Numbered from the stretch's first letter, positions 2,388 through 64,000 are shown. The stretch is DNA of 64,000 nt from Candidatus Zhuqueibacterota bacterium (GCA_049322915.1 JBMOPW010000034.1:64001-128000); one strand, 5' to 3'. A program made the numbers and translations. The notes: generated by a model from the sequence alone, not told the origin.

Positions 2388-3527
2388 ATGCAAAGGACAC
2401 GAATCATTTTAATTTTATCAGCGCTCCTGGGATTGTTAAGCGCAGTAACCGCCCAGAATTATTCTCCAATCATCGATACCGTAAAAGTACAACAGCGAGA
2501 CAATAGCTTCCTGGTTGATATTTACTACGACGTCATCGATACTGAATATGATTCGCTTATTGTGTTCATCCACGTATCCGAGGATAGCGGCGCGACGTTC
2601 AACGTCCCGGTGAATGCGCTGAGCGGTGACTTCGGATATCAAATTTACCCGGGCACAGACCGGCATATCGTCTGGGATGCCGGCAAAGACTATCCCGAGA
2701 AATTTGGCAAGAAATTCAAAGTGAAATTGACAGCCAGTGACACGAAGCTGAACCACGGGGAGGCGATTCCCCCGGGTGGATTTTACATGGGTGACAGCGC
2801 CGGATTCGATGATCCGCGCCATCTGATTGCGCTGGATGATTTCGAGGTGAGTCGTTACGAAGTGACGAATGCAGAATATCGTCTGTTTTGCGAAATGACA
2901 GATCGCGAATTTCCACCGGAAGGAGGATTGTTCCAGCCACCGAAAGGCTATTTTCTTGAATATAAAAATTACCCTGTGGTTGCCGTGAGCTGGTACGACG
3001 CTGTGCTGTATTGCAATTGGTTGAGCGAGCTACAGGGGCTGGAGCAATGTTACAACACAGTCAATTGGGTTTTCGATGAAACGAAGAACGGTTATCATTT
3101 GCCCACGGAAGCCCAATGGGAAAAAGCAGCGCGCGGCGGACTGGAAAAGATGCTTTATCCCTGGGGCGATGACCATCCGCCTGAAACCCGGGCGAACTAT
3201 CAAAATTACGCCGGCGATTTGATCACACTCATGGCCAACTTCGACGGACAGGGAAGAGGCACTCTGATGGTGGATACCCTAACCACCAATGGTCTTGGAT
3301 TGTATCAAATGGCCGGAAATGTCTGGGAATGGTGCAACGATTGGTACAATGATGAATATTATTATGACTCCCCTGATGAAAATCCACTTGGTCCGACGTC
3401 CGGTTCTGACCGAGTGATACGAGGTGGCGCATGGAATACCTCGGATATTTATCTTCATTGTGCGGCGCGGGATATGAAAGCGCCGGATAGAAAGCGGTAT
3501 GATATCGGTTTTCGGGTTGCACGTTAA
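2388..3527 (+). CDS. Secreted FGE/SUMF1-type (CLec-fold) protein with an N-terminal Ig-like domain
   Basis: Signal peptide. Motifs EVTNAEY, PVVAVSW, LPTEAQWEKAARGG, MAGNVWEW, RGGAW, GFRVAR. Lacks the catalytic Cys pair of true FGE. Confidence 0.88.
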   Translation: MQRTRIILILSALLGLLSAVTAQNYSPIIDTVKVQQRDNSFLVDIYYDVIDTEYDSLIVFIHVSEDSGATFNVPVNALSGDFGYQIYPGTDRHIVWDAGKDYPEKFGKKFKVKLTASDTKLNHGEAIPPGGFYMGDSAGFDDPRHLIALDDFEVSRYEVTNAEYRLFCEMTDREFPPEGGLFQPPKGYFLEYKNYPVVAVSWYDAVLYCNWLSELQGLEQCYNTVNWVFDETKNGYHLPTEAQWEKAARGGLEKMLYPWGDDHPPETRANYQNYAGDLITLMANFDGQGRGTLMVDTLTTNGLGLYQMAGNVWEWCNDWYNDEYYYDSPDENPLGPTSGSDRVIRGGAWNTSDIYLHCAARDMKAPDRKRYDIGFRVAR

Positions 3528-3568
3528 TGACGCATCGAATCAACTGAACAAAACATCACGAGGATAAC

Positions 3569-12034: not shown

Positions 12035-12093
12035 AAGATACGCTCTGGAAATCGGAAGAAAGTCAATGTGCTATGAAAATTTGGAGAATACCC

Positions 12094-13185
12094 ATGTATA
12101 AAATCTATTTGAAAATTCTCGCGGTGATTGCAATATCAGGAACTTTGATCGCTGCGCCTGAGGGTGGAAGATTATCCACTGGATTTGTCTTTCAGAAATG
12201 GACGATTGAAAACGTCACGAATCCGGTTTCCGAAGGCTCCTTTCCGATTGAATTGATCTATCCTTTCATGGATAACCTTCAGGTTCAGGTGAGTCATTTG
12301 CCGGCTCTGTCACAATTTGGTGAATCAAATCTGGCAGGGCTTTCCGACACCTGGATCAGAACGTCGTATTCGCTGATGAACAATCAACTGGCGCTCAGTC
12401 TTGGGGTTGGCCTCCCTACAGGAAAAACAGAGTTGGACTCCACTGAAATCCTCATCACCCAACTCATCAGTCAAAATTCATTCAAGTTCCGACTGCCTGT
12501 TTTTGGTCAAGGCCTGACGCTCTCTGGCGGCGTGATGTATGCGCTGCCAGTGAATGATCTCTTCACAGTGGGTATTGGTGCAAATTATGTGTATCGAGGT
12601 CAATATAAATTCAGCAAACTTTCCCCCTTCGAATATGACCCGGGCGATCAGATTGGTGGAAATATCGGATTTGATTATTCAATCAATCCGTCTCTCACCG
12701 CAAGTCTTGATTGTGTTTATAGCTATTACCTCGCGGACAAGCTGGACAAGACCGAGGTTTTCACCTCTGGTCCCAATTTCACGATTAAATTATTCACCCA
12801 ATACAAACTCGACTTCGGCGATCTGTGGCTGAATGCTTTCTATCGCGCAAAATCCAGGAATGAAACGTGGGATGGCCAGGCGTTGGCGCCGGAAGCGAAA
12901 AATTCGAATGTCACTTTGCGTGAAGTTGAGTTGGGGTCCCGGATCCGGCTCAATGAAATCGTCTTCATCAACGTGCTCACTGAGTTGAGAACCTATGCAA
13001 AGAATGAGTACGATACAGGATCGATCACCATTTTTGGTGGCGGCATTGGATACGATTTATCAGTAACACGGAACTTTGCCCTCTCTATGGGAATTAAATT
13101 GTTCTTCGGAAATGGTGAATTTTTCAATACCACTCCGTCGTTAACTGGCAATGAGTTTTATTTTGGTACTCAATGGTACTTCTAA
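12094..13185 (+). CDS. Putative outer-membrane beta-barrel protein
   Basis: Signal peptide, alternating amphipathic strands, GLSDT and LPTG motifs, C-terminal aromatic signature (FGTQWYF). Confidence 0.7.
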   Translation: MYKIYLKILAVIAISGTLIAAPEGGRLSTGFVFQKWTIENVTNPVSEGSFPIELIYPFMDNLQVQVSHLPALSQFGESNLAGLSDTWIRTSYSLMNNQLALSLGVGLPTGKTELDSTEILITQLISQNSFKFRLPVFGQGLTLSGGVMYALPVNDLFTVGIGANYVYRGQYKFSKLSPFEYDPGDQIGGNIGFDYSINPSLTASLDCVYSYYLADKLDKTEVFTSGPNFTIKLFTQYKLDFGDLWLNAFYRAKSRNETWDGQALAPEAKNSNVTLREVELGSRIRLNEIVFINVLTELRTYAKNEYDTGSITIFGGGIGYDLSVTRNFALSMGIKLFFGNGEFFNTTPSLTGNEFYFGTQWYF

Positions 13186-49130: not shown

Positions 49131-50447
49131 ATGCCCGAAGCCATTATGCAGGTCAAGCTTATAAAAATATTAAAACTTCTCGTGCTGCCATTGCTGTACG
49201 CTGTGATTTTCTTAATTGAATTTCTCATCGTGAAAAGCAGTCTGGCAGTTAGCGCCGTTGTTCCCATGATCCTCATCGCCATCCTGCTTTATTTTGGATT
49301 TCACTTCTTTTCAGAGCGAATGCCTGTGATTCCGCCAACCATCGATCGGTCGCTTGAGCAAAATCTGAGCGAAAATTTTAGGCTGGTGAATCGAAAGTTG
49401 AGAAAACAAATTTACGATTTGCATAATCTCTTTGAGATCTCTGTAAATTTAACGTCCATCCTGGAGCCAAAGCAATTGGTGAGTTCCTTGCTGCCGTCTC
49501 TTGTCGGACAATTACAAACCGCCGGCGCTTTGGTTTTTTTACCAAATGTGAATGAGGAAACGGTCATACACCCAGTCAGTTACAAGGGATATTCTGCAAA
49601 GCAAGTTGAAGGATTCTCTCTGAATTTGAAGGATCCAATTTTCAACACTTTTTTAAACAAGAAAGTCGCGATCGATTTGAAAAAATTGGATAAACAGCAC
49701 CTCGACGACCGTTTCATTTTTTTAATCGAACATGGCGTTCAATTGATAGCGCCGTTAGTCCATAAATCAAAAATTAAAGGTATCATCGCTCTGGCCGGCA
49801 AGATCAACCAAGATGATTTTTCTCAAGCCGAAACCGAAATGTTCACCCTTTTTTCGAATTTAATCTCTGTCGCGTTTTCCAATGCCATCCTCTACCAGGA
49901 ACTTGAAAAAATTTCAATCACTGATGAGATGACCGGGCTGAACAATTACCGTTTCTTCCGCAAACAATTCGAGGATGAACTTTCGCGCGCGAGACGATTC
50001 AATCATCTACTGTCGTTTATCATTTTTGATGTTGACTATTTCAAGAATTACAACGACACGCTGGGGCATCCGGCTGGCGATGAGATCCTGCGACGCGTTT
50101 CTGAATTGCTGAAAATGACCATCCGGCAGTCCGATATTGCAGCGCGTTACGGCGGCGAAGAATTTTGCATTATTCTGCCGGAGGAAGACGTGGACGGCGC
50201 GATGTGTTTCGCCGAGCGGTTTCGGAAGAAGATCGAGCATTATCCCTTCCCAAGCGAAGAGGTGCAGCCGGGCGGAAATATCACCATCAGCATTGGCATC
50301 TCCTGTTTTCCCTCACATGCCAATACTGTTCAAGAACTGATCAACAAGGCGGACGTCGCGTTGTACCACGCGAAGCGAAACGGACGTAATAAGACATGCT
50401 TGTATGCCGAAGACATGAGTGATGAAGAAAGCTCGATGCAGCAATGA
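49131..50447 (+). CDS. Membrane-bound GAF-GGDEF diguanylate cyclase (start uncertain)
   Basis: Two TMs; DEMTGL, YNDTLGH, RQSD I-site, RYGGEEF. Confidence 0.92.
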   Translation: MPEAIMQVKLIKILKLLVLPLLYAVIFLIEFLIVKSSLAVSAVVPMILIAILLYFGFHFFSERMPVIPPTIDRSLEQNLSENFRLVNRKLRKQIYDLHNLFEISVNLTSILEPKQLVSSLLPSLVGQLQTAGALVFLPNVNEETVIHPVSYKGYSAKQVEGFSLNLKDPIFNTFLNKKVAIDLKKLDKQHLDDRFIFLIEHGVQLIAPLVHKSKIKGIIALAGKINQDDFSQAETEMFTLFSNLISVAFSNAILYQELEKISITDEMTGLNNYRFFRKQFEDELSRARRFNHLLSFIIFDVDYFKNYNDTLGHPAGDEILRRVSELLKMTIRQSDIAARYGGEEFCIILPEEDVDGAMCFAERFRKKIEHYPFPSEEVQPGGNITISIGISCFPSHANTVQELINKADVALYHAKRNGRNKTCLYAEDMSDEESSMQQ

Positions 50448-50680
50448 AATCCTCAGTTTATTTTTCAAGCGATAAAGCAACATAGTTACTATTCAGGCAT
50501 ATATTCTTGCCTCAAAGACGCCGAGTCACGAAGTTACACGAAGATGTCAATTTTATTTTCCTTCCCGGGTCGACTCTAAAAAAGCTTAAAAGGCCTTGAT
50601 ACATTGGTTATGATATCGTTTCCATGTCATAAATGACGTGGCATTTCAATTGAAAAAATTAAAAGTTAGATAACGTGAAC

Positions 50681-50738
50681 AGCCCCGACGCTTAAGTCGG
50701 GGAACACAAATTTACCTTTAATTTTTGGGCGTTAGCCC
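50681..50738. repeat. REP-like palindromes inside copy A
   Basis: CCCCGAC-GCTTAA-GTCGGGG and GGGCGTTAGCCC, bracketed by TAACGTG direct repeats at 50671 and 50745. Confidence 0.5.
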
Positions 50739-50823
50739 ATTTTTTAACGTGGACTCATTCTTATACTGTGAAACTCTATTTAATTTTTCAACAGAAATTC
50801 CGCTTTTCAGCACCGATAATTTA

Positions 50824-50986
50824 GCCTGCATTATTCATAGTATATTTAAAGGAGGCTGGCCAACCAGAATGGTGCTCTTTTTAGAATAAAAGTATAAAAA
50901 CTGAGTTTCAAAATAGCTTAGCCTTTAGCTAATTGAAAATCTGAATGTTGACTCAAATTCTGAGCAAGTTCATGAATAATTCAGGT
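50824..50986 (+). mobile_element. 163-bp MITE, copy A
   Basis: TIRs CCTGCATTATTCAT / ATGAATAATTCAGG, TA on both sides. Nine mismatches in 163 bp against the reverse complement of 57375-57537 (manual count). Confidence 0.8.
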
Positions 50987-51600
50987 TAGATGAATCTTTT
51001 TCTTCGCGCCTTCGAGGCTTTGAGGCTGAATAGTTGCGCGACATAACTCCTTCTGTGTCCATTCCAGCAGTCCATCTGCAATACAGATTCAAGGATAATT
51101 GTCACAACTCCATTTTTTCTGATGTTCAAAGATGCAATGGGAACCAATTTTTTGAACTCAGTTCACCTGTCAATGAATTTTCAGATAACTTACCTGGAGA
51201 GATTCCCACTATATTTTTCGTGGTCGCCGAAGCCCATCGATGTTCTTTGGTAAACACGGCTAAGAATTAATTTCTTTTTGAATTAATACTTGACTGGAAA
51301 AGTAATTATGTTTATATTTACGGGTCTAAAAATTTCAGCTTGAGAGGAAAAACACGTGGTTCCCCCGGCTTTTGCCAAATGCAAAACCTGTACTGACGTG
51401 CCTGTTTTCGATTTCCCTGGAACGAATGTGGGGGGTGTGAATATTCTGGCAGATTTCGACGTGTACATCCGAACAGTTTTTGATCGATTGTCTGCCAAAA
51501 TATTATGGAGTTTTCCTACCTGTTTCGAACCACAGAATAAAACGAGTAATCAATTCACTTTCAAAAACCAATTGGCCGATGTTTTGGATCCGGAGATGGT

Positions 51601-53955
51601 ATGCTCATGAAAATTCAAGTGTCAATTTTTATGTCGTTTCTCATTCTCTCCAACGTGTGTTATTCACAGATTATTGATATCCGCGAATTGCATCAAAATA
51701 ATTCCCAGGGACAGCCGCTTCTGCTGAATCAGGTGGTCACGATCTCTGGAGAAGTGACGGTTTCCAATCAGTTTGGACTGGTTGCATCTGTTCAGGATAG
51801 CAGCGCCGGCGTTATGGTTTACGATGCGGCGTTTGTCAGTGCTGTCGGGATCGGCGACTCGGTCACAATCTCCGGAAAAGTCACGCAATACCAGGGGCTG
51901 ACGGAGCTACAAAATATCACCATCCAATCGCATCGGATGAATTCACCGACAATTGAACCACAACGCGTCGCCTGCCGCGACATCGCCACCGAAGGAGCCG
52001 GCGGAATCGAGAATTTTGAAGGCGAGCTTCTCCGAATAGACGACGTCACTGTGAACACAACCGCGTGGGGTTCCAACGCGAATTACACCCTGAGTGACGC
52101 CACTGGTTCCTGCGCCATCCGCATCGATGACCAATGCAGCCTTGCCAATACCATGGCGCCGTCCGGTACGTTCGACGTGATTGGCGTACTTTCCCAGTAC
52201 GATACGAGTTCTCCTTACACCAGCGGCTATCAGCTCATGCCCCGTTTTTCATCAGATATTTTATGGCATTCCGGTGTGAAAATCACAAGCGCCGTTTCGG
52301 TCAAAAATATCACGCCCCATTCGCTCACGCTGTGCTGGGAAACCGATTCGCCAGCCAATTCCGCCGTCATCTTTGGACTGTCGGAAAATTATGAGATCGA
52401 TACAGTCACTGTGAGTGAGTCGGTCGTTGTTCACGAGGTTGAAATAACCGGACTGACGCCGGCAACCGTGTATCGCGTCAAAGTTGGCTCCTCCATTGGT
52501 TCGGATTTTAATTTCTCTTCGAATACAAATGTCATCACAGCTTCCGATCCAGCTTCCACCGGGAAAATCAATGTTTATTTCAACCAGTCCGTGGAACATG
52601 CGTATGCGGATTCAATGCAGGCGGCCGGGAACGTCAACCTGCTTTCGAAATTGATCCAGCGGATCAATGCTGCAAAATACTCCATTGATTTCTGTTTTTA
52701 CAACGTCACACAGGAAGAAGCAGCCCAGGTTTTGATCGGTGCACATCAACGGGGAGTTAAAGTGCGCGTCATTACTGAAGATGATAATGCCGATGAAGCC
52801 CCAATTCAATATTTGAAGGCGGCCGGCATTCCGGTCATCGACGACAAATTTGGCAACAATTCCGGGTCTGATTACATGCACAATAAGTTCATGGTCATTG
52901 ATCATCGCGACGCCTCATCCGCTTCGGACGATTGGGTCTGGACTGGTTCGTACAATGTTTCCTATTCAGCCACCTATGATAATGCTGAAAACGTGGTGGA
53001 AATTCAGGATCAGGCGCTGGCCGAATGCTACACCATTGAATTCAACGAAATGTGGGGCAGCAGCTCGGATACGCCGAACGAAGCGAATTCTGTTTTTGGT
53101 GATAATAAGACAGACAATACACCTCATTACTTCTCTATCAACGGAGTGGAAATGACGCAGGTGATGAGTCCGTCCGATGGCGGAAGCAATTATTTTGTCA
53201 ATCACATTCAACAAGCGCAAAGCTCGCTCTATTTCTGCATTTACAGTTTCACCCAGACTCAAATTGCCGATGCCATGCGCGAAAAATGGTATCAGGTACC
53301 CGGTTTCAAAGTGAAAGGGGTGTTCGATGCGCGCGGGTCCCAGTACGATAATTACTCGGGCGCCGGGAGTTATCCCTGGAATCCACCAGCTGATGTCCAT
53401 ATCGGAAACGAGGCAGGCATTGTGCACCACAAATATCTATTGATCGATGCCAATGGCGGACCGGGTCAGCCGGCGCTCATTACCGGATCCTACAATTGGA
53501 GCCTTGCCGCAGAAAATGAAAATGATGAAAATTTCCTCATTTTCACAGATGAGACAATCGCCAACCTTTACTTGCAGGAGTTCGCGGCCCGATACCACCG
53601 CGCTGGCGGGGCCGAGCTTCTCACATTTAGTTCGGTGAAGGATCAAGCAGAAACCACACTTCCCGAAACAATTTCTTTGGCTCAAAATTATCCCAATCCA
53701 TTCAATAGCCTCACCCGCATTCATTTCACCATTCCGTCATCGTTCAATGCCCGGGAAACAGCGCTCAAAATTTTTAATATCAATGGCCAGTTGGTAGCGA
53801 CTTTGCTTCATCAGAAAATGTCCGCCGGCCCTCATCAGGTCGATTGGGATGGACTGGACGGATGGGGCAAAAAGGTCGCTTCCGGCGTATATTTGTATCA
53901 ATTATCATTCGGCGATAACTATGTTTCGAGCAAAAAATTAATTGTGTTAGAATAA
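51601..53955 (+). CDS. Secreted phospholipase D/nuclease-family protein with OB-fold, FN3-like and T9SS/FlgD C-terminal domains
   Basis: Two HKD motifs (MHNKFMVID, VHHKYLLID), each followed by TGSYN. C-terminal QNYPNPFN...WDG. Confidence 0.88.
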   Translation: MLMKIQVSIFMSFLILSNVCYSQIIDIRELHQNNSQGQPLLLNQVVTISGEVTVSNQFGLVASVQDSSAGVMVYDAAFVSAVGIGDSVTISGKVTQYQGLTELQNITIQSHRMNSPTIEPQRVACRDIATEGAGGIENFEGELLRIDDVTVNTTAWGSNANYTLSDATGSCAIRIDDQCSLANTMAPSGTFDVIGVLSQYDTSSPYTSGYQLMPRFSSDILWHSGVKITSAVSVKNITPHSLTLCWETDSPANSAVIFGLSENYEIDTVTVSESVVVHEVEITGLTPATVYRVKVGSSIGSDFNFSSNTNVITASDPASTGKINVYFNQSVEHAYADSMQAAGNVNLLSKLIQRINAAKYSIDFCFYNVTQEEAAQVLIGAHQRGVKVRVITEDDNADEAPIQYLKAAGIPVIDDKFGNNSGSDYMHNKFMVIDHRDASSASDDWVWTGSYNVSYSATYDNAENVVEIQDQALAECYTIEFNEMWGSSSDTPNEANSVFGDNKTDNTPHYFSINGVEMTQVMSPSDGGSNYFVNHIQQAQSSLYFCIYSFTQTQIADAMREKWYQVPGFKVKGVFDARGSQYDNYSGAGSYPWNPPADVHIGNEAGIVHHKYLLIDANGGPGQPALITGSYNWSLAAENENDENFLIFTDETIANLYLQEFAARYHRAGGAELLTFSSVKDQAETTLPETISLAQNYPNPFNSLTRIHFTIPSSFNARETALKIFNINGQLVATLLHQKMSAGPHQVDWDGLDGWGKKVASGVYLYQLSFGDNYVSSKKLIVLE

Positions 53956-53996
53956 TTAACTATTTACCAGGTGCAGCAAGCAAGGAGAACAACGAT

Positions 53997-55043
53997 ATGC
54001 CTACAGGCACGATGAAAGCTGTGATGAAAACGATACCAGGCATTGGCGCAGAGTTAAAAAAAATGGCTATTCCCAGACCGGGAGTTGGCGAAGTGCTGGT
54101 TCGTGTGAAAGTAACGTCAATTTGCGGTTCCGATGTCCATATTTACAACTGGAATTCCTGGGCGCAGCAACATGTCAAGCCGCCTCAGATCATTGGGCAC
54201 GAATTGGCCGGCGAAGTTGTTGAATTGGGCCAGGGCGTATCATCACTAAAAATCGGTGATTTCATCTCCGCTGAGACTCACATCCCCTGTGGCTTTTGTA
54301 AGCAGTGCCGCACCGGCAACCAACACATTTGCAAACATTTGAAAATCCTGGGCGTGGATACCAATGGCGCTTTTGCGGAGTACATCGTCATTCCCGAAGT
54401 GGTCGCATGGAAAAACGATCCGGCCATTCCGCATCACTTCGCCTCGGTGCAGGAACCGCTCGGCAACGCCATTGACACAGTCCTCAGCGAGGACGTGGCT
54501 GGAAAATCGGTAGCCATCATCGGCGCAGGACCCATTGGCATGCTGGCCGTCGGAGTGGCCCGGGTCTCCGGGGCAACAGATATTTTCGTCACGGACATCA
54601 ACGACTATCGCCTGTCCATTGCAAAAAAAATGGGCGCGACAGCCACGTTCAATCCAAACAGCACGGACATTGTCAAAGAAATCCGCGACGCCACCAGCGG
54701 CGATGGCGTGGACGTTGTCCTGGAAATGTCGGGCAATGCAACGGCGCTGAATCAGGGGTGTCAGTTGCTGACGCCAGGCGGCCGCATTTCTCTATTAGGC
54801 GTTTTCAACGCGCCGGTGACACTTGAGTTGAACAATTTAATCATCTTCAAGGGCATTCGCGTGTATGGAATCACCGGTCGCAACATGTTTTCCACCTGGT
54901 TCAAAGGGGCCAATTTCCTCAAATCACGGACGCTGGACCTGAGCCCGGTGATCACCCATCAATTGACGCTCGATGATTTTCAACAAGGATTTGATCTGAT
55001 GAAATCGGGCATGTGCGGTAAAATTGTCATGTCGGTCGCATGA
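53997..55043 (+). CDS. tdh: L-threonine 3-dehydrogenase
   Basis: ICGSDVHIY, GHE, ETHIPCGFCKQC, EPLGNA, GAGPIG, EMSG, GITGR. Confidence 0.93.
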   Translation: MPTGTMKAVMKTIPGIGAELKKMAIPRPGVGEVLVRVKVTSICGSDVHIYNWNSWAQQHVKPPQIIGHELAGEVVELGQGVSSLKIGDFISAETHIPCGFCKQCRTGNQHICKHLKILGVDTNGAFAEYIVIPEVVAWKNDPAIPHHFASVQEPLGNAIDTVLSEDVAGKSVAIIGAGPIGMLAVGVARVSGATDIFVTDINDYRLSIAKKMGATATFNPNSTDIVKEIRDATSGDGVDVVLEMSGNATALNQGCQLLTPGGRISLLGVFNAPVTLELNNLIIFKGIRVYGITGRNMFSTWFKGANFLKSRTLDLSPVITHQLTLDDFQQGFDLMKSGMCGKIVMSVA

Positions 55044-55130
55044 ACGTGAATTTTCCTATGCCGGCATGGACAAGTTCAATTCATCAGGACGAAGGTTCCT
55101 GTCGATCCGGATCTTCGAAAGGATGCACAC

Positions 55131-55508
55131 TTGATTTTTGGCATTGGCATTGACATCATCGAAGTCGCTCGCGTGGAGAAACAAATAGCCGGCGATGATT
55201 CCGGTTTTTTGAAGCGAATTTTCTCTGAAAAAGAGATTGGCTACTGCGAACTCAAGAGAAATAGAGCGCAGCACTATGCCGCGCGATTTGCTGCAAAGGA
55301 GGCGTTTTTCAAGGCGATTGGAATCGGCTGGAGAAATGGCCTGGCCTGGAGCGAAATTGAAATTCTTGATGATGATCTCGGAAAGCCGAATATTTTTTTG
55401 CACGGGAAAGCAAAACAATTTATTGATGAAAATCATATTAAACAGTTACATGTATCGCTTTCGCATTTAAAAGAAACTGCTGTGGCGGTTGTCATTCTGG
55501 AAATTTAG
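55131..55508 (+). CDS. acpS: Holo-ACP synthase (TTG start)
   Basis: GIGIDIIE, ARFAAKEA, GKP, VSLSH. Confidence 0.93.
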   Translation: MIFGIGIDIIEVARVEKQIAGDDSGFLKRIFSEKEIGYCELKRNRAQHYAARFAAKEAFFKAIGIGWRNGLAWSEIEILDDDLGKPNIFLHGKAKQFIDENHIKQLHVSLSHLKETAVAVVILEI

Positions 55509-55518
55509 AGGAGGATGT

Positions 55519-57225
55519 ATGTCCAATATCATCTCGTACGAGAAACGAATTCAGGATTTTAGCTGGTCGATTTCAGAGAAGGAACTGGGACATGAAAAAG
55601 GAAATGTCATCAATATTGGCTGGTACTGTTCCGACCGAATTTGTCAGATGGGAAAGGCCGAAAAGACTGCGTTGATCTGGGAAGGATTCGGCGGCAAAGA
55701 AAGGCAGTACACGTTCAATGAGATTCGCCTGGCCAGTAACGCTATTGGCTCCTTTCTAAGGCAAATTGGCATCAAAGACGGGGACAGAGTCTGCCTGTTT
55801 TTGGATAAAGTGCCGGAGTTGTATATCGGATTTCTGGGCATTTTGAAAATCGGGGCTATTGCACAGCCACTTTTCTCCGCCTTTGGTGACGAGTCCCTGT
55901 TTGTCCGACTGGAAAATGCGGAGACGAACGCCATTATCACGCAGCGGAAGCATGTTGCAAAAGTCCGGAAAATTCGTGAGTCGCTTCCGTCGTTGAAGCA
56001 TATCATCATTGTGGATCATGACGATAAAAAGCCGCTGCAGGAACGCGAGATTGCATTTTCACTGGATGACGCTGATCCGGTCGAACATCTGGAAATTCAT
56101 CCAACCAGGGCAGAATCGCCGTCAGTCATTCATTACACGTCCGGAACGACCGGGCAGCCGAAAGGCGTTCAGCACGTCCATTATTCCCTCATCTCCCAAT
56201 ACCTCACCACCAAATGGGTACTGGATTTGCTGGACGATGATATTTATTGGTGCACCGCAGATCCGGGCTGGGTCACTGGTACGTCCTATGGAATCATCGG
56301 GCCCTGGAGTATGGGGATCACGCAGTGCGTGCTGGACGTTGGCTTTGGCGCCGAACATTGGTACCGATTCATTGAGAAGAATAAAGTCACTGTCTGGTAC
56401 TCCGCTCCCACAGCAATCCGCTCGCTGATGAAAGCCGGCGATGAAATAGTCAATAAATTCGATATGTCCACCCTGCGCCATCTGGCAAGCGTTGGCGAGC
56501 CGCTCAATGCGGAGGCTGTGGTCTGGTCGGAAAAAGTATTTGGCCTGCCCTTTCACGATACTTTCTGGCAGACGGAGACCGGCTCAATAATGATCAGCAA
56601 TTATCCGGGCATGAAGATCAAGCCGGGATCCATGGGTAAGCCTTTCCCTGGAATCAACGGCACTGTCATCAGCGCCGAGACCTATCAGCCATTTGATGGC
56701 CCGGGGAAAATTGGACTCATTGCCTTCCAACCGGGCTGGCCGGCCATGATGCGGACTTATTGGAAGAATGAAAAGACGTACAAGAGCAAGTTTGTGAACG
56801 GCTGGTATCTTTCCGGCGATCGCGCGAGCATTGACAAAGACGGTTACTTCTGGTTCGTCGGCCGGGACGATGATGTCATCAATACCGGCGGCCATCTCGT
56901 CAGTCCGTTCGAAGTCGAATCTGCGCTGCTCGAATTTCCGGCAGTGGCAGAATCAGCCGTGGTGAGCAAACCGGATCCCATCAACATGGAGGTCGTCAAA
57001 GCCTTCGTGGCGTTGAAACCGGGCTACTCTCCCAATTCTGATATCGAGCTGGAGATAATGAACTTCATCCGCAAAAAACTTTCTCCGTTGGCCATGCCCC
57101 AGGAGATCGAATTTGTCGAATCCCTGCCCAAAACGCGCAGCGGAAAAATTATGCGGCGATTGCTTCATGCGAAAGAATGGGGCGAGGAAATTGGCGACAC
57201 ATCCACGCTGGAAAATGATGCATAA
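55519..57225 (+). CDS. Acetate--CoA ligase-like adenylate-forming enzyme (possibly an ACP ligase)
   Basis: YTSGTTGQPKG, ADPGWVTG, FWQTETG, GRDDD, PKTRSGK; GGAGG RBS. Confidence 0.9.
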   Translation: MSNIISYEKRIQDFSWSISEKELGHEKGNVINIGWYCSDRICQMGKAEKTALIWEGFGGKERQYTFNEIRLASNAIGSFLRQIGIKDGDRVCLFLDKVPELYIGFLGILKIGAIAQPLFSAFGDESLFVRLENAETNAIITQRKHVAKVRKIRESLPSLKHIIIVDHDDKKPLQEREIAFSLDDADPVEHLEIHPTRAESPSVIHYTSGTTGQPKGVQHVHYSLISQYLTTKWVLDLLDDDIYWCTADPGWVTGTSYGIIGPWSMGITQCVLDVGFGAEHWYRFIEKNKVTVWYSAPTAIRSLMKAGDEIVNKFDMSTLRHLASVGEPLNAEAVVWSEKVFGLPFHDTFWQTETGSIMISNYPGMKIKPGSMGKPFPGINGTVISAETYQPFDGPGKIGLIAFQPGWPAMMRTYWKNEKTYKSKFVNGWYLSGDRASIDKDGYFWFVGRDDDVINTGGHLVSPFEVESALLEFPAVAESAVVSKPDPINMEVVKAFVALKPGYSPNSDIELEIMNFIRKKLSPLAMPQEIEFVESLPKTRSGKIMRRLLHAKEWGEEIGDTSTLENDA

Positions 57226-57323
57226 TTTGGGGCAATTGTCAGCCTGATTTAACTGTTTGAATATCTTTTCGCTTAAATCGAGTGAATAGTTGTCAGCTTT
57301 CAACCATCAGCTAAAAAAAAATC

Positions 57324-57672
57324 GTAACTGTTCAGTCACAAAGTCTCAAAGGCGCGAGGAAAAAAATACATCTACCCTGAATTATTCATGAACTTGCTCA
57401 GAATTTGAGTCAACATTCATATTTTCAATTAGCTAAAGGCTAAGCTATTTTGAAACTCAGTTTTTATATGTTTATTCTAAAAAGAGCACCATTCAGGTTA
57501 GCCAGCCTCCTCTAAAAATATTATGAATAATGCAGGCTAACTTATCGATTCAGTAAAGCTGAACGTGGATTAAAAATATGAATTGCCCAAGATAAGAACG
57601 AATAAAATGACATGTTCGAGTAACTTTGTAGCGTGGTGACTTCGCGGCGAGACTACATGCCTGGATAGCGAC
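57324..57672. mobile_element. Composite MITE/REP-like element, copy B (inverted relative to A)
   Basis: Ends GTAACTGTTCAG / CTGGATAGCGAC. Arms match copy A at 42/51 and 48/65 positions (manual count). Confidence 0.7.
57375..57537 (-). mobile_element. 163-bp MITE, copy B
   Basis: Reverse complement of 50824-50986, TA on both sides. Confidence 0.8.
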
Positions 57673-57764
57673 GAAAATTCTCTTTAACCCGGAACCGGGA
57701 GCCTTTAAACATGGAACCTTAGTGGTTACAAAATTTCATAAAAATTTAATTAATCAAAAGGAGA

Positions 57765-58016
57765 TTGAAGATGGATGACATGCAAAAAATCATTTTGGAA
57801 TACGTGCGGAACGAGTACCTTGAAGATGAAGACGAAGAACTTGACGTCGATACCCCGCTCATTTCCGGCGGCATTGTGGATTCGTTTTCTATGGTTTCAT
57901 TGAAACGATTTTTGGAGAATAAATATAAAATTTCCATTCCCGATGACAAGGCCACACCCGAAGCGTTCGACACGGTCGATAACATCTGCCAACTGGTGCG
58001 GCATTATCTGAAATAG
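57765..58016 (+). CDS. Stand-alone acyl carrier protein (DltC-like type; start 57765 or 57771)
   Basis: Acidic 83-aa protein with the phosphopantetheine site GIVDSFSMV. Confidence 0.9.
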   Translation: MKMDDMQKIILEYVRNEYLEDEDEELDVDTPLISGGIVDSFSMVSLKRFLENKYKISIPDDKATPEAFDTVDNICQLVRHYLK

Positions 58017-58216
58017 CGCCGGCATAAATCAGGATGGCTATTCCGCCAGCGACTGACCAAATGCAAGCTGGATAACCTTTTTCTCAGCGTCACAGATCGA
58101 TCCGACTGCGGCCCACGAATGCGTTGACGATCTGGTCATGGCCAATTGAAGTGTCACTGGAACGAGGCTCATGATTCACATTCACTTAACATTCCTACAG
58201 AAAACAGGAGAGCAAC

Positions 58217-59464
58217 ATGGCATATAGCGATAAAGTCAGACATATTTATCAGGACGAAATTAAGAATATACAAGATTTAGGCTTATTCAAAGTTGAACGA
58301 TTTATTCATGATCCACAAGCTGCCGATATTTCTGTGGAGTTCCCGACTGGCGCGTCGTTGAAAAAAGTGATTAACATGTGCGCCAATAATTATCTTGGCC
58401 TCTCCAGCCACCCGGACGTCGTGAAAGCGGCTCACGAAGGATTGGATCACCGCGGCTATGGAATGTCTTCTGTCCGTTTCATCTGCGGAACACAGGATAT
58501 TCACGATCAATTGGAAAAAATGATGACCCAATTTCTGGGAACCGAAGACACCATTCTCTTCCCTTCGTGCATGGACGCCAACGCCGGCGTATTTGAAGCC
58601 GTACTCGGAGAGAACGATGTGATGATTTCCGATCGATTGGTTCATGCGTCCATCATCGATGGCATTCGATTGTGCAAGGCACAGACCGATACGTTCAAAC
58701 ACTCCAACATGGAACATCTGGAAGAGAAATTACAATTGCATTCGGACAAACGTTTGAAAGTCATTATTACGGATGGCGTTTTTTCCATGGACGGCGATAC
58801 CGCCCGGCTGGATGAGATAGTCGCGTTGGCCGAAAAATACGATGCGTTGGTCTTTGTGGATGACTCCCACTCTTCCGGCTTCATCGGCAAAACCGGTCGC
58901 GGCACCCATGAAAAATACGGCGTCATGGGAAAAATCGATATCATCACTACGACTTTTGGTAAGGCATTAGGCGGCGCTTCCGGCGGCTGTGTTTCCGGAC
59001 GCAAGGAAATTGTTCAGCTATGCCGTCAGAAGGCTCGCCCCTATCTGTTCTCCAACACGATGGCGCCGGTGATTGTTTCCGGAGTCCTTCGCGTGCTGGA
59101 AATCCTGTCTAAAAGCACCGAGCGTCGGGACAAATTGGAGCGTAACACAGAATACTGGCGCAAAGGATTGTCAGACGCCGGATTCATTTTGAAAGAAGGC
59201 GATACGCCCATCGTTCCGGTCATGTTGTTCAACGCGAAGCTGTCCCAGGATATTTCCAAAGACCTGTACGCCGAGGGCATTTACGCTGTTGGATTTTTCT
59301 TCCCGGTGGTTCCGAAAGGCCAGGCTCGAATCAGAACTCAAATTTCCGCCGGCCATGAAATCCATCACCTCGATAAAGCACTGGACGCATTCACCAAAGT
59401 TGGGAAAAAATATAATATCCTGGGCAAGACAAAGCAGGAAATCATTGATATGTATGGGATATAA
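58217..59464 (+). CDS. kbl: Glycine C-acetyltransferase (Kbl)-like alpha-oxoamine synthase
   Basis: CANNYLGL, SVRFICGT, HASIIDG, DGVFSMDG, FGKALGG, RPYLFSN, ARIRTQIS. Confidence 0.9.
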   Translation: MAYSDKVRHIYQDEIKNIQDLGLFKVERFIHDPQAADISVEFPTGASLKKVINMCANNYLGLSSHPDVVKAAHEGLDHRGYGMSSVRFICGTQDIHDQLEKMMTQFLGTEDTILFPSCMDANAGVFEAVLGENDVMISDRLVHASIIDGIRLCKAQTDTFKHSNMEHLEEKLQLHSDKRLKVIITDGVFSMDGDTARLDEIVALAEKYDALVFVDDSHSSGFIGKTGRGTHEKYGVMGKIDIITTTFGKALGGASGGCVSGRKEIVQLCRQKARPYLFSNTMAPVIVSGVLRVLEILSKSTERRDKLERNTEYWRKGLSDAGFILKEGDTPIVPVMLFNAKLSQDISKDLYAEGIYAVGFFFPVVPKGQARIRTQISAGHEIHHLDKALDAFTKVGKKYNILGKTKQEIIDMYGI

Positions 59465-59478
59465 CCTATTGAAATCTG

Positions 59479-59535
59479 AATCCATCGGATCCCGGCATGC
59501 TGCAAAGTCAACGCATCGCCTGGATCCGATGGATT
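59479..59535. repeat. Strong intergenic hairpin between kbl and prs
   Basis: Perfect 14-bp stem AATCCATCGGATCC / GGATCCGATGGATT with further internal pairing; no T-tail. Confidence 0.7.
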
Positions 59536-59619
59536 GGCTCGCGCAGTTCATCATTATCACAACAGTAGTGACATGCTGCAATGGTGTCGAAAGAATTGTA
59601 AACATGAAAGGAGGTCACA

Positions 59620-60567
59620 ATGCTCGGTGAAATGAAAGTCTTCTCAGGAAGTTCGAATCCTGAATTGGCCGTCAATATTTGCAAATATCTCAACATTCCC
59701 CTGAGCCAGTCCAGCACATTCAGATTTTCCGAAGGGAATGTCTATGTGAAAATTCAGGAAAGCGTCCGTCAGGCGCACGTATTTTTTATTCAGTCCGGAG
59801 CCCATCCGATTAATGACCTGATCATGGAAACTCTTTTTTTTATTGATGCGTTTAAACGTTCAAGCGCTGCATCGGTGACGGTGATTCTGCCCTATTTTCC
59901 ATATACCAAAGGGGATAAAAAAGACGAGCCGCGAGTTTCCATTCGGGCCAAAGTCGTTTCGGAAATCATCGAAGCCACTGGCGCGAATCGCGTGTTGACC
60001 ATGGATTTGCAGCCTCCTCAAATTCAGGGATTTTTTAACATTCCAGTCGATAATCTCTACGCGCTGCCGGTTTTTTGTGAGTACCTCAATACAATTCGAC
60101 TCAAGGATACCATCATTGTTGCGCCCGATTTTGGCGCGGCGCGAATGGCCAACCGATTTGCGCTTCAACTCAACTGCCCTGTCGCTGTCGCCAGCAAGCG
60201 ACGGCTCGGCCACACGGAAGAGGTGGAGCTCACGCAGATCTTTGGCGATGTGGAAAATAAAGACGTCATCATCGTGGACGACATGGTGATCAGCGGCGGC
60301 ACTTTGCTTGAAATTAGCAAATCTCTAAAAAATCAGGGCGCGGCAAACATCTATGCTTGTATCAGCCATGCGCTTCTCAGCGATAAATTTTTAACCAGTC
60401 TGGAGACCAGTGAAATTGACCAATTAATTGTGACTGATTCTATTCCATTTTCTCAAAAAGGAAATAAAAAAGTCATACAGATTTCCGTGGCCAGGTTATT
60501 CAGCGAAGCAATTTCAAGTATTTATTATGGGGATTCCATCAGCACGTTATTCAAGGATGTTGAGTAA
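59620..60567 (+). CDS. prs: Ribose-phosphate pyrophosphokinase (divergent)
   Basis: FSEG, QIQGFF, VAPDFGA, VDDMVISGGT, TDSIP. Confidence 0.9.
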   Translation: MLGEMKVFSGSSNPELAVNICKYLNIPLSQSSTFRFSEGNVYVKIQESVRQAHVFFIQSGAHPINDLIMETLFFIDAFKRSSAASVTVILPYFPYTKGDKKDEPRVSIRAKVVSEIIEATGANRVLTMDLQPPQIQGFFNIPVDNLYALPVFCEYLNTIRLKDTIIVAPDFGAARMANRFALQLNCPVAVASKRRLGHTEEVELTQIFGDVENKDVIIVDDMVISGGTLLEISKSLKNQGAANIYACISHALLSDKFLTSLETSEIDQLIVTDSIPFSQKGNKKVIQISVARLFSEAISSIYYGDSISTLFKDVE

Positions 60568-60587
60568 TTTTCTTCGGGTATTTTCTC

Positions 60588-62453
60588 ATGGAGGGTGGTA
60601 TGCTACCACGGCGCAACACGTTTAAAAAATTTCCTTCCATCGCATTGTCTTTGTATTTGACGCTGACCTGCATTTTTGTTCTGGGCTGGAAAGACGCATC
60701 CGCGCAGAGCGCGATTTCATACTACATCGAAATCGATGAGGAGCATTGGAATTCCTTCTTTGTTGCGCTGACAATTCAAAATAATGTGGCTGACCAGTTT
60801 CTATGCCAGATTCCCCGGTGGAGTCCTGTCTCTCCCACGGCATGCGAATATCACACAAATATTTTTGATTTTGAAGCCAAAGGCGACATGGGGCAATCGC
60901 TGGAAGTGACAAAGTTAAATTCACATTCCTGGCTCGTCGAGTGCCAGAAGAGCACGGTCGTCATAATTTCCTATAAAATCAAGGCCTCGTCAAATAACCT
61001 CTCCGGCATCAAATTGGACAGAAGTTTTGCGAGCGTCAATTGCGCCGCAACCTTCATGTCTATTCGCGAGTTGATGATGCAGCCGGTTCAGCTTGTTGTC
61101 CGCGTGCCACATGGCTGGAAACTGGCGACGGGTCTGCCGACCACTGAATCGTTCGAATATTTCGCTCAGGACTACAATCAACTGGCCAACAATATTTTGT
61201 ACATGGCGCCCTTTTTCAACACGGATTTTTCTTACAAAAACAGGAACTTTTTCCTGATCGTTGATGGGCCGCGCAATTTCAAAGTCAACAAATTGCTGAC
61301 GATCATCCAGCGATTGATCAAAGAGAGCTATCAAATATTCGGTGAATTGCCGTTTGACCAATACATGTTCATTTTCAAAAACCGCGAAAATCAATTTACG
61401 ATCACCTCGCAGTCATTCAGCAATTGCTCCGTCATCTATGTGCCGAGCCGCGTCTCAAAAGATGATCTCATTCAACTCAGCCAGGAAATTTCCAGCAGCC
61501 TGTATAAAACATGGAACGGGTCGAAGTTCGCCCCGCAAAGCTATCTTCAGAAAAATTACCAATTGATCCCGCGCTCCACAAATTTATGGGTCATTCTTGG
61601 TCTGAACGATTATCTCGGGCTTCTTTCCCTCATTCGGGCTGGGATCATTGAAAAAGAATATTTCATCCAATATCAGATTCGCCAGATCAATGACATACTC
61701 CGACAGAGAAATTTTCACGACAATTCAATCACTGACCTGAGCTACAATATCAGCGATTACGATTACTCCGAAGTCGCGGAGATTTTAAAGCTGAAAGGCC
61801 ATGTGCTGGGTTTTCTTCTCGATGTCTATATCCGTTCCAATACGGAGAACACTCGGTCTCTGGTCGATGTGTTGCAATTTCTCAACTCGTGGTTTGGACA
61901 GCAAAGTGAAGGGTACAGCGATACTCAGATTCTGCAAGCCATCAACTCCGTCACAGCGCTTAACCTGACCTCATTCTTTGATAAATACATCAACGGCACG
62001 CTGCCTTTCCCTTCGAAGGAAATTTTTGCCAAAGCCGGTATCTTCATCGAATCGGTTCAGGACACTCTGCCGGACTTCGGCCCCATTTCCATTTCTGAAA
62101 ATGACAATCGCGTCCTTGAAGTGCCGGAAGCCAGTCCCCTGGCGTTCGCCGGGCTGAAAGTAGGAGACAAGCTTCTGTCCATCAACGATTTGAAATTGCA
62201 GCATCCAATTCAATTTGATCGATTCGTCGATTCGCTGCACGTGGGACAGGAAACGGATTTGAACGTCCAGCGTCAGGGATTAATGCTGATGTTGAGCGCC
62301 AAGGTTGCCGGTAAAATTTGCCAGGTGTATAAACTCATCGATGCTATTCCCAAAAATGAGTTGCAGATTCAAATTCAGAACAGTATGTTTTTCACGGAAA
62401 CGGCTGAAAAAAAAGTTAATGCCACGGACACATTACCAAAACAAAAAGAATAA
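60588..62453 (+). CDS. M61 peptidase-like protein with PDZ domain, metal-binding motif lost (start uncertain)
   Basis: IPRWSP, WKLATGL, TWNG...NLWV, LLDVYIR, SPLAFAGLKVGD. No HExxH. Confidence 0.78.
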   Translation: MEGGMLPRRNTFKKFPSIALSLYLTLTCIFVLGWKDASAQSAISYYIEIDEEHWNSFFVALTIQNNVADQFLCQIPRWSPVSPTACEYHTNIFDFEAKGDMGQSLEVTKLNSHSWLVECQKSTVVIISYKIKASSNNLSGIKLDRSFASVNCAATFMSIRELMMQPVQLVVRVPHGWKLATGLPTTESFEYFAQDYNQLANNILYMAPFFNTDFSYKNRNFFLIVDGPRNFKVNKLLTIIQRLIKESYQIFGELPFDQYMFIFKNRENQFTITSQSFSNCSVIYVPSRVSKDDLIQLSQEISSSLYKTWNGSKFAPQSYLQKNYQLIPRSTNLWVILGLNDYLGLLSLIRAGIIEKEYFIQYQIRQINDILRQRNFHDNSITDLSYNISDYDYSEVAEILKLKGHVLGFLLDVYIRSNTENTRSLVDVLQFLNSWFGQQSEGYSDTQILQAINSVTALNLTSFFDKYINGTLPFPSKEIFAKAGIFIESVQDTLPDFGPISISENDNRVLEVPEASPLAFAGLKVGDKLLSINDLKLQHPIQFDRFVDSLHVGQETDLNVQRQGLMLMLSAKVAGKICQVYKLIDAIPKNELQIQIQNSMFFTETAEKKVNATDTLPKQKE

Positions 62454-62465
62454 TCCAGACCTTTT

Positions 62466-63749
62466 ATGAACGCACCCACCCGGCAGAAAAAATCTCTCAT
62501 CGGTCGCACCATGTACATTCCGCGCATGAGCTTCAGCGGCGCAAAATTGACGGCTGCGGCATTTCAATCAGTGGGCATATTCGCACAGCCTTCTCCCCCA
62601 TCTGATTCCAAAACCCTGGAATTGGGCGGCAAATATCTCAATGGCGACGAATGCCTCCCGGAGCGGGTCACTCTCGGAAATTTCCTGAAGGTGATCGAAT
62701 CCCCGTCGTTTAATCCTGAAAAAACCGCTTTTTTGTTGCCGACTGCCGGCGGTCCCTGTCGGTATGGGCAATATCAATCGCTGCTCAAAAAAATACTCAA
62801 GGATCGTGGATTCGATGAGGCCATGGTTGTTTCGCCTACCAGCAACGATGGCTACAATGGATTTGAATCAGCGCAGGGATTGATGCGCACCACGTGGCAT
62901 GCGATTTTGTGCGGCGATATTTTGAGAAAAATGCATCTTAAAATTCGTCCTTATGAATTGGAAAAAGGCCGCGCGAATGAGATATTCCACAAGAGTCTGG
63001 AGAATTTGAGCCGAATCATTGCCAATCCCAAACTCAGCGCCAGGGAACGGTTGGTGAAACTTCGTCAATCGCTGGTGGATGCCAGGGATCGCTATCACCG
63101 CATTTCGCTGAAATTTACTAAGGACAAACCCCTGATCGGCATCGTCGGCGAGATTTATTGCCGACTGAACGAATTCAGCAACGAATATCTGATCAATAAA
63201 ATTGAAGAATTCGGTGGGGAGGTCTGGATGGCTGACATCAGTGAATGGGTTTGGTACACCAACGATGAACAACGCCTGCGAATTATTCGCGCCGGCAAAA
63301 GGTTCTCGACCCAGATGATCGCCGCCAGAATCAAGTTCGCCGTTCAGCATCGGGATGAGCAATTCTTATTAGGCCCATTCAAACGGGATTTTGAAGGGTA
63401 CGAAGAACCGCACAGCGTGAAAAAAGTTTTGAACAACAGCCAGCCTTACCTTCCTCAGAAAGGTGCATTGGGGGAAATGGTGTTGAATGTCGGCAAATCC
63501 ATTTACCTGCATGAAAAAGGCGCGGACGGCGTTATCGACATCAGTCCCTTCACGTGCATGAACGGCGTTGTGTGCCAGGTTGTCTATCCGCAGGTGAGCA
63601 AGCACCACGATGACATTCCGATCCGGCTATTTTATTTTGACGGAACGCAACTCGACCTGGATCGGGATGTCGGCATCTTTTTAGAATTAGCCCGAAGTTA
63701 CATGAAAAAAAAGTATCAAAAGCGAGTTTATCCATATTACTTTAATTAA
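62466..63749 (+). CDS. Protein related to the C-terminal region of acyl-CoA dehydratase activase fusions
   Basis: ECLP, GPCRYGQY, IGIVGEIY, PFTCM; no ATPase domain. Confidence 0.75.
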   Translation: MNAPTRQKKSLIGRTMYIPRMSFSGAKLTAAAFQSVGIFAQPSPPSDSKTLELGGKYLNGDECLPERVTLGNFLKVIESPSFNPEKTAFLLPTAGGPCRYGQYQSLLKKILKDRGFDEAMVVSPTSNDGYNGFESAQGLMRTTWHAILCGDILRKMHLKIRPYELEKGRANEIFHKSLENLSRIIANPKLSARERLVKLRQSLVDARDRYHRISLKFTKDKPLIGIVGEIYCRLNEFSNEYLINKIEEFGGEVWMADISEWVWYTNDEQRLRIIRAGKRFSTQMIAARIKFAVQHRDEQFLLGPFKRDFEGYEEPHSVKKVLNNSQPYLPQKGALGEMVLNVGKSIYLHEKGADGVIDISPFTCMNGVVCQVVYPQVSKHHDDIPIRLFYFDGTQLDLDRDVGIFLELARSYMKKKYQKRVYPYYFN

Positions 63750-63761
63750 CTTGAGGGAGCT

Positions 63762-64000
63762 ATGAGACGATCTGCCATTTTAATTCTGTGTCTTGTTTTG
63801 TCAACCGCATTATTTTCTCAGGATAAAGCCCAATACCTGACCGAAGAAAAGGATGGGAATACCCGACAGGTATTTACCCTGGATTTTTCGAAACTCAAGA
63901 AACCGAATGAGTATGGTGATTTCAAGACCTTGTTCCACATGCCTCCAATTACTCAGGACAATACAGGCACATGCTGGTGTTTTGCCACAGTTTCCTTTTT
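63762..64000 (+). CDS. Secreted papain-family (C1) cysteine peptidase, partial
   Basis: Not in the ORF track. MRRSAILILCLVLSTALFSQ...QDNTGTCWCFATVSF carries the Q-x3-G-x-CW motif. GGAG RBS. Confidence 0.85.
   Translation, partial: MRRSAILILCLVLSTALFSQDKAQYLTEEKDGNTRQVFTLDFSKLKKPNEYGDFKTLFHMPPITQDNTGTCWCFATVSF

Follow-up and report, generated by a model that had tools for sequence, protein, structure and literature searches.

A tdh-to-kbl gene string enclosing a ligase and a carrier protein

The window analyzed here, a stretch of 64,000 nucleotides from a Candidatus Zhuqueibacterota bacterium (GCA_049322915.1, JBMOPW010000034.1:64001-128000; genome G000), carries at positions 53997 to 59464 a string of five plus-strand genes in which a threonine dehydrogenase and a glycine C-acetyltransferase are combined with a private acyl carrier protein (ACP). 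From 5′ to 3′, these genes encode a Zn-dependent L-threonine 3-dehydrogenase (tdh; 53997..55043; 348 amino acids [aa]; TIGR00692, 480.5 bits versus a cut-off of 458.35), a holo-ACP synthase (acpS; 55131..55508; 125 aa; TIGR00516, 109.7 versus 59.8 bits), an AcsA-type AMP-forming acetate ligase (55519..57225; 568 aa from the ATG at 55519; NF003313 acetate--CoA ligase, 760.6 versus 729), a stand-alone carrier protein (57771..58016; 81 aa; PF00550, 22.1 versus 20.8) with its phosphopantetheine site at Ser38 in GGIVDSFSM, and an ACP-linked paralog of glycine C-acetyltransferase, hereafter Kbl-A (58217..59464; 415 aa; TIGR01822, 572.5 versus 493; NF005394, 573.4 versus 460). Alternative starts are available for the ligase (TTG at 55489, overlapping acpS) and for the ACP frame (57765), and the best NCBIfam match of the latter falls under its cut-off. 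All five open reading frames (ORFs) were found in the order given by the first-pass annotation of this DNA, with tdh and kbl enclosing the phosphopantetheinyl transferase (PPTase), ligase, and ACP genes. The string resembles the kbl-tdh pair of Escherichia coli (Kbl structures 1fc4 and 7bxp) in that Tdh and Kbl exceed their equivalog cut-offs, catalytic residues are kept, and a single gene string holds both tdh and kbl. In E. coli, however, the two genes directly adjoin each other, and no gene for an ACP, a ligase, or a PPTase intervenes.

The carrier protein and Kbl-A form the conserved core of the cassette

A search with an alignment of ACP orthologs in one-genome-per-species contigs yielded at least 600 pattern matches, at least 579 of which were confirmed. 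The locus set (n = 88) comprised the best 80 of these at least 579 ACP loci, 7 loci from relatives, and the window, with three duplicates removed. Loci were testable for Kbl with at least 1.5 kb of downstream sequence (n = 77), for the ligase with at least 2 kb of upstream sequence (n = 76), and for acpS with enough flank (n = 70). Their labels cover about ten phyla, i.e., KSB1, Zixibacteria, Delongbacteria, Bacteroidales, Ignavibacteria, Aminicenantes/Saccharicenans, Elusimicrobia, Cloacimonadales, Krumholzibacteriia, and Bipolaricaulota. Kbl-A is encoded directly 3′ of the ACP in all 77 testable loci, an arrangement that recurs far beyond chance. The ligase gene lies directly 5′ of the ACP gene in 65 of 76 loci; among the other 11, one ligase is frameshifted, two are located farther upstream, and eight loci have none. 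acpS is found upstream of the ligase or ACP gene in 55 of 70 loci, and a second, canonical-type Kbl is encoded within 36 of the 88. The conserved core is the ACP plus Kbl-A, usually preceded by the ligase. What had been proposed as a five-gene unit is thus widely conserved as a ligase-ACP-Kbl triad, not as the full set of five.

The same partnership emerged from two sets of whole genomes. Among 61 relatives of the window genome, 11 have an ACP ortholog, and the same 11, but no others, encode a Kbl that shares at least 67% identity with Kbl-A. In a 51-genome sample of the order to which the Bacteroidales-labelled genome G061 belongs, the ACP is present in seven genomes and is immediately followed by Kbl-A in all seven, while only one of the 44 ACP-less genomes (G107) encodes a Kbl at least 78% identical to it. 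Identity to the window proteins remains high across phyla (ligase, 66 to 86%; Kbl, 71 to 92%; ACP, 67 to 85%), which points to strong constraint, to lateral spread as a block, or to both. Neither an ACP-linked Kbl nor an acetate-ACP ligase of this kind is described in the searched full-text literature, which subscription journals lie largely outside. We conclude that the module is real, conserved, and undescribed.

Kbl-A is a distinct paralog with residue changes that track the carrier protein

A FastTree phylogeny of 63 rows (22 of the 82 Kbl-A rows, picked for diversity, plus all other Kbl rows) placed Kbl-A as a single clade nested within Kbl, with SH-like support of 88. The Kbl model scores canonical paralogs at 609 to 655 bits versus 550 to 590 for Kbl-A, while serine palmitoyltransferase (SPT) models reach only 228 to 320 on Kbl-A versus cut-offs of 500 to 670. 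Residues with catalytic, pyridoxal phosphate (PLP)-binding, or substrate-binding roles (N50, H136, S185, D210, H213, T241, K244, S274, and R368 in E. coli numbering) are invariant in all 82 Kbl-A proteins. KBL-specific Val79, which corresponds to V86 of the window protein, is likewise invariant (32/32); the relevant passages of one report state that every KBL enzyme has Val at this position, where other α-oxoamine synthases have Ser, Leu, or Thr (PMC11906848). Judged by these residues, the chemistry of Kbl-A is predicted to be still Kbl-like.

The first-pass annotation had pointed out that this Kbl reads CMDAN and LVHAS at two typically conserved motifs. Indeed, the window protein contains SCMDANAG and RLVHAS, whereas E. 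coli Kbl has F112 and N135 and the solved Cupriavidus necator Kbl has FDANGG and LNHAS. Position 135 is Val in 82 of 82 ACP-linked Kbl-A proteins, while E. coli Kbl and all 36 of the other paralogs have Asn there; position 112 is Met in 78 and Leu in 4 of the 82 versus Phe in the same 36 paralogs and the E. coli enzyme. Ala replaces Gly at position 116 in 97% of 78 Kbl-A proteins and in all four copies from genus g18. These three positions are next to catalytic His136 and within the DAN loop. Kbl-A is further distinguished by a few other changed positions, a 4-residue insertion, and a C-terminal extension of ∼17 residues. Unlike E. coli Kbl, it also coexists with a canonical enzyme: carrier genomes usually hold a canonical Kbl too, and the copy in the window genome (contig C26) reads SCFDANGG and LNHAS.

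Two genomes serve as natural controls. In the relative G007, a syntenic tdh-acpS-kbl string is present without ligase or ACP, and its Kbl has the C-terminal extension yet reads CFDANGG and LNHAS. The Kbl of G107, 75 to 78% identical to Kbl-A, has no ACP gene upstream and also reads CFDANGG and LNHAS; the ACP had no match anywhere in that genome at an E value of ≤1e-20. The motif changes mark a distinct paralog in which V135 and M/L112 track the ACP strictly (82/82 versus 36/36 others plus the two ACP-less controls). The ACP and Kbl-A very probably work together.

Two further relatives of Kbl-A are encoded in some of the loci. In seven (L055, L057, L060, L063, L064, L066, and L067), five of which have a Delongbacteria label, the gene after Kbl-A encodes a sister paralog that has the insertion and the C-terminal extension in common with it but retains N135 and F112, possibly the ancestral state of Kbl-A. 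In four others labelled Zixibacteria or Ignavibacteria (L053:9747-11000, L061:10029-11264, L062, and L065), Kbl-A is followed by a third, distant α-oxoamine synthase that is 31 to 33% identical to it and scores under all curated cut-offs.

The carrier protein and the ligase

In the carrier protein, D37-S38 is invariant, and Ser38 and 28 other columns do not vary among 30 sequences. Its AlphaFold model (pLDDT 88.1) has a helix starting at residue 38 and, when compared with solved folds, is closest to PigG and PltL (TM scores of 0.83 to 0.86), followed by the carrier of glycine:[carrier protein] ligase and DltC (0.75 to 0.81). The label DltC-like, used in the first-pass annotation, proved too loose: DltC is among the similar folds, but behind PigG and PltL, and the DltC model NF003464 scores 24.9 versus a cut-off of 68. 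ACP_for_OlsHI was also discarded as a lead (62 versus a cut-off of 130). PigG, PltL, the carrier of glycine:[carrier protein] ligase, and DltC all stand alone and were deposited as complexes with adenylating enzymes that are themselves free-standing, and the modelled fold thus lends mild support to direct loading of the ACP by the ligase, mild because all carrier proteins look alike. The window genome also contains other stand-alone PP-binding frames of carrier size, e.g., on contig C36. On contig C45 (∼9966-12670), a 524-aa AMP-binding ligase, 29% identical to the cassette ligase, is separated by a 270-aa ORF from a small ACP-like frame that is 31% identical to the cassette ACP; this pair looks like another private ligase-carrier system.

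The best solved relative of the ligase is 9g79, deposited as an acetyl-coenzyme A (acetyl-CoA) synthetase, which matches over the whole length with 559.8 bits and which we take to be Bacillus subtilis AcsA. The small-substrate Trp of the FWQTETG motif, noted in the first-pass annotation, is present in the translation and aligns with W414 of E. coli Acs. In that numbering, W414 is kept in 69 of 72 cassette ligases, and V310, T311, V386, and K609 are kept in all 72; the window ligase also has the PKTRSGKIMRR motif. Conservation of W414, V310, T311, and V386 across the cassette ligases indicates that the acetate pocket is retained. ActP-like symporters in 4 loci and Pat-like acetyltransferases in 13 are neighbors that fit acetate activation.

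Threonine dehydrogenases and threonine pathway genes

The window tdh is the only close tdh in its genome, other matches being no more than 33% identical. The Zn-type gene accompanies the cassette only in KSB1-type relatives, which belong to the class of the window genome, and in one further locus. A threonine dehydrogenase (TDH) of the unrelated short-chain dehydrogenase/reductase (SDR) type is encoded directly upstream of acpS in 6 loci labelled Zixibacteria or Ignavibacteria and nearby in 5 more; this SDR protein matches solved L-threonine 3-dehydrogenases with E values of 5e-103 (to 2yy7) to 7.5e-128. Membership of tdh in the cassette, as first proposed, accordingly holds in part: dehydrogenases of two unrelated types are recurrently attached, but the Zn type is lineage specific, and either type occurs in 19 of 88 loci. 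The occurrence of two unrelated TDHs at the same position nevertheless argues for 2-amino-3-oxobutanoate as an intermediate, which would make the acyl group acetyl and the amino acid glycine. All five carrier genomes sampled from other phyla encode a TDH somewhere. At one locus with an Ignavibacteriales label (L061), genes for an EutM/EutK-like microcompartment shell protein and a sigma-54 activator (4058-4621, 1381-3624) lie just upstream of the SDR-TDH-acpS-ligase-ACP-KblA string.

Whether carriers of the cassette lack the canonical threonine genes received a mixed answer. The window genome (96.3% complete) has no match to homoserine dehydrogenase, versus a match in 14 of 14 control genomes; its best thrB score is 41.5 bits versus a cut-off of 168, and its ThrC-like gene falls under every threonine synthase cut-off (141 versus 167, 208 versus 303). 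The latter gene, on contig C34 (C34:561408-562697; L132:1408-2697), encodes a 429-aa ThrC-like PLP enzyme and adjoins a xanthine dehydrogenase-like gene; many relatives have a second copy of this low-scoring class (173 to 197 bits). Within the 61 relatives, thrB exceeds its cut-off in none of 11 carriers versus 36 of 50 non-carriers, and a high-scoring thrC, defined in this analysis by a noncurated line of ≥210 bits, is found in none of the 11 versus 41 of the 50. Six of the 11 carriers do have a ThrC-family match over the curated cut-off, at 173 to 182 bits. Seven non-carriers belong to the window's own family, and five of them lack thrB and six a high-scoring thrC; the pattern of absence is thus largely one of lineage. 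Moreover, among the five carriers sampled in other phyla, three encode a canonical thrC (247 to 282 bits). Absence of hom, thrB, and a clear thrC therefore holds for the window genome, but related non-carriers mostly look the same and most of the carriers from other phyla have thrC.

Local sequence context in the window

The spacer between the ligase and ACP genes measures 545 bases in the window versus ∼90 to 150 bases in relatives, and the genes are not tightly packed here. Most of it (57322..57730) is an interspersed repeat resembling a miniature inverted-repeat transposable element (MITE), for which blastn of the spacer against the genome returned more than 100 partial or full copies on most contigs, at 78 to 97% identity. 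This MITE-like repeat is ∼170 to 400 bases long across the contigs of the genome and had no blastn match in the cassette loci of relatives. Its copy in the spacer may uncouple transcription of the ligase and ACP genes in this genome. A search of window positions 50000 to 64000 with Rfam gave no match at an E value of ≤1, and a scan for promoters and terminators gave counts not above those of shuffled sequence. Upstream of tdh, positions 51601 to 53955 encode a secreted phospholipase D (PLD)-domain protein with a C-terminal sorting domain of the type IX secretion system (T9SS). This gene is syntenic with the cassette in two families of the class, and much of the local gene order is thus inherited.

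Discussion

We favor, with a probability of roughly 55%, the explanation that the cassette encodes a carrier-protein-dependent variant of the Tdh-Kbl pathway, which has the private 81-residue ACP and Kbl-A at its core and operates through acetyl-ACP. In this scheme, the housekeeping AcpS would convert the apo-carrier into holo-ACP. The AcsA-type ligase would form acetyl-AMP from acetate and ATP and pass the acetyl group to the phosphopantetheine thiol of the ACP, instead of or besides CoA. Kbl-A would then interconvert acetyl-S-ACP plus glycine and 2-amino-3-oxobutanoate plus holo-ACP, and Tdh would interconvert 2-amino-3-oxobutanoate and threonine. The sequences show the gene families, their conservation and co-occurrence, and the residue signature; acetyl as the cargo of the ACP, its loading by the ligase, and its use by Kbl-A are what we infer. 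As to direction, we lean slightly toward synthesis of threonine from acetate and glycine, driven by cleavage of ATP to AMP and pyrophosphate (PPi). A private pool of this kind could stay fully acetylated and be insulated from the Pta-AckA route of the window genome, which also encodes Pta and two AckA proteins.

A number of observations count against this mechanism, and several of them concern the ligase. The enzyme exceeds the NF003313 equivalog cut-off for acetate--CoA ligase, and it is the only Acs-like gene product of the window genome (other matches are no more than 29% identical), so that it may simply be the cell's Acs. R194, presumably a CoA-contact residue, is kept in 71 of 72 cassette ligases, and R584, which contacts CoA according to the part of PMC10455477 that deals with it, is kept in all 72. 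According to passages of the same source, R191, R526, and R584 of Salmonella enterica form a trio of highly conserved Arg residues with importance for binding CoA and for catalysis (PMC10455477). R526 is Leu in all 72 cassette ligases, but we reject this substitution as a sign of lost CoA use, given that Leu is also present in many unrelated representatives, a 683-residue long-type Acs included, among the 92 of 150 library representatives that were aligned (those of 480 to 720 aa). R191 does not align to an Arg in the cassette ligases, and we reject this loss as a sign too, since short AcsA-type enzymes in general, 9g79 included, have a different loop. Furthermore, 8 of 76 loci have no ligase at all, and in genus g18 four genomes that are 89 to 97% complete keep tdh-acpS-ACP-KblA-KblB but have no Acs-like match anywhere at an E value of ≤1e-60. 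Loading by the ligase thus cannot be the full account, and the g18 carrier must be loaded or unloaded in another way. A PPTase dedicated to the cassette is not what the locus encodes: acpS is the only AcpS-type gene in the window genome (TIGR00516), with PF01648 adding a single Sfp-type gene on contig C10, which holds nonribosomal peptide synthetase/polyketide synthase (NRPS/PKS) genes, and in G007 it stays between tdh and kbl without ACP or ligase. It is, therefore, a housekeeping enzyme. A dehydrogenase of either type is present in no more than the 19 loci mentioned above, and, given possible lateral spread of one block, the loci are not independent observations and their apparent number is inflated.

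The strongest competing explanation, which we nevertheless hold to be unlikely, is that these are ordinary CoA-dependent enzymes. The ligase would be the organism's acetyl-CoA synthetase and Kbl-A a second acetyl-CoA-dependent Kbl, while the ACP would serve elsewhere or co-travel with housekeeping acpS in a laterally spread block. The ligase and Kbl scores above curated equivalog cut-offs, the standing of the ligase as sole Acs-like gene, retention of R194, R584, and K609, the nondiagnostic R526L change, and the persistence of acpS at the ACP-less G007 locus all speak for it, as do the Pat-like (13 loci) and ActP-like (4 loci) neighbors, which also accompany true acs genes (compare acs-yjcH-actP in E. 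coli). Likeness to AcsA-type acetyl-CoA synthetase (9g79) comprises the whole-length match, NF003313, the acetate pocket, K609, PKTRSGKIMRR, and the Pat-like neighbors. The differences are that the cassette ligase clade is encoded beside a private ACP and Kbl-A and that it has Leu for R526, the latter not unique to the clade. However, ordinary CoA chemistry leaves unexplained why the ACP never occurs without Kbl-A (77/77 loci, 11/11 relatives, and 7/7 genomes of the order sample), why V135 and M112 appear only where the ACP is present, and why carriers have a second, canonical Kbl.

Less likely again is that a carrier-dependent α-oxoamine synthase makes a different amino-ketone, e.g., from propionate or another short acid, with a signal (aminoacetone or a pyrazine precursor) or a specialized metabolite as product and threonine not its purpose. 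In its favor, positions 112, 116, and 135 are changed next to catalytic His136 and within the DAN loop, and a third, distant α-oxoamine synthase follows Kbl-A in 4 loci. As far as the pertinent passages of two reports go, the related AasR/AcpR/SPT system yields a lipid base (PMC9386255), and C. necator Tdh and Kbl give rise to pyrazines via aminoacetone (PMC9814548). On the other hand, the acetate-pocket residues W414, V310, T311, and V386 are kept, and so are Val79, the KBL marker, and the residues for the glycine carboxylate (N50, H213, and R368); threonine dehydrogenases of two unrelated types are attached, and no recurrent tailoring or export genes lie beside the cassette.

The acetyl-ACP scheme permits breakdown of threonine to acetyl-ACP just as well, and for ligase-less variants this is the simpler reading. 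As an explanation of its own, catabolism differs from the mechanism we favor in direction only and is counted partly within it: Tdh and Kbl-A would release glycine and acetyl-S-ACP, and the ligase, running backwards, would yield acetate and ATP from AMP and PPi, while in ligase-less organisms another enzyme would use or discharge acetyl-ACP. Consistently with it, ligase-less variants keep tdh-acpS-ACP-KblA-KblB, and the locus labels include Aminicenantes, Cloacimonadales, and Zixibacteria, which are anaerobic fermenters; reversal of Acs for ATP synthesis is known in Syntrophus aciditrophicus. Yet the window genome already has Pta, two AckA proteins, and a canonical Kbl, so that a second, costlier route needs a reason, the ActP-like genes beside the ligase fit acetate uptake, and no acetyl-ACP consumer is evident in the loci. 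Taken by itself, this explanation is given a low probability. Finally, a general replacement of the homoserine route by the cassette is rejected, because thrC is present in three of the five carriers sampled in other phyla and same-family non-carriers mostly lack thrB and thrC.

Within the acetyl-ACP mechanism, a narrower and rather doubtful proposal is that in the KSB1-type organism of the window the cassette is the cell's threonine route, in which acetate, glycine, ATP, and NADH would give threonine. A carrier pool charged by an AMP-forming ligase would drive the Kbl condensation, which is otherwise unfavorable, without a futile cycle involving Pta-AckA. Were this the case, the cassette would represent a new pathway of threonine biosynthesis and contain the first α-oxoamine synthase shown to use acetyl-ACP.

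Activation of a carrier with acetate has a counterpart in CitC, the citrate lyase ligase, which uses acetate and ATP to acetylate the ACP of that lyase and so gives acetyl-S-carrier, AMP, and PPi; CitC differs in belonging to an unrelated enzyme family, in the prosthetic group, and in having an activating rather than a metabolic role. The closest described system is the AasR/AcpR/SPT module of Rhodobacteria, i.e., CC_1165, CC_1163, and CC_1162 in Caulobacter crescentus, in the account given by sections of PMC9386255. By its described architecture, that module is like the cassette in encoding together an ANL ligase, a small specialized ACP, and an α-oxoamine synthase. In the same sections, AasR is reported to acylate AcpR only and not CoA, SPT to prefer acyl-AcpR, and the rationale to be the steering of an acid into one pathway (PMC9386255), a rationale that by analogy would apply to the cassette too. 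The substrates set the two apart, since the part of that source that describes them has long-chain fatty acids and serine forming 3-oxo-sphinganine (PMC9386255), whereas the cassette has an AcsA-type acetate pocket, a Kbl by score, tree, and Val79, and attached TDHs.

New here are the tracking of the ACP by V135/M112 with two natural controls, the displacement of one TDH type by another, the ligase-less genomes, the negative outcome for R526L, and the mixed survey of thrB and thrC. The link between V135/M112 and the ACP offers a two-residue target for studying the choice between CoA and ACP. NCBIfam scores imply the annotation names acetate--CoA ligase, acyl carrier protein, and glycine C-acetyltransferase, under which reconstructions of many uncultured anaerobes would depict ordinary CoA metabolism. 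If the acetyl group is truly held on a private carrier, the cassette would be the second case, after AasR/AcpR/SPT, of an α-oxoamine synthase fed by a dedicated ligase-carrier pair and the first such case in which the unit has two carbons and belongs to central amino acid metabolism. It would then bear on how acetate, glycine, and threonine are handled in carbon-flow models of KSB1, Zixibacteria, and Aminicenantes.

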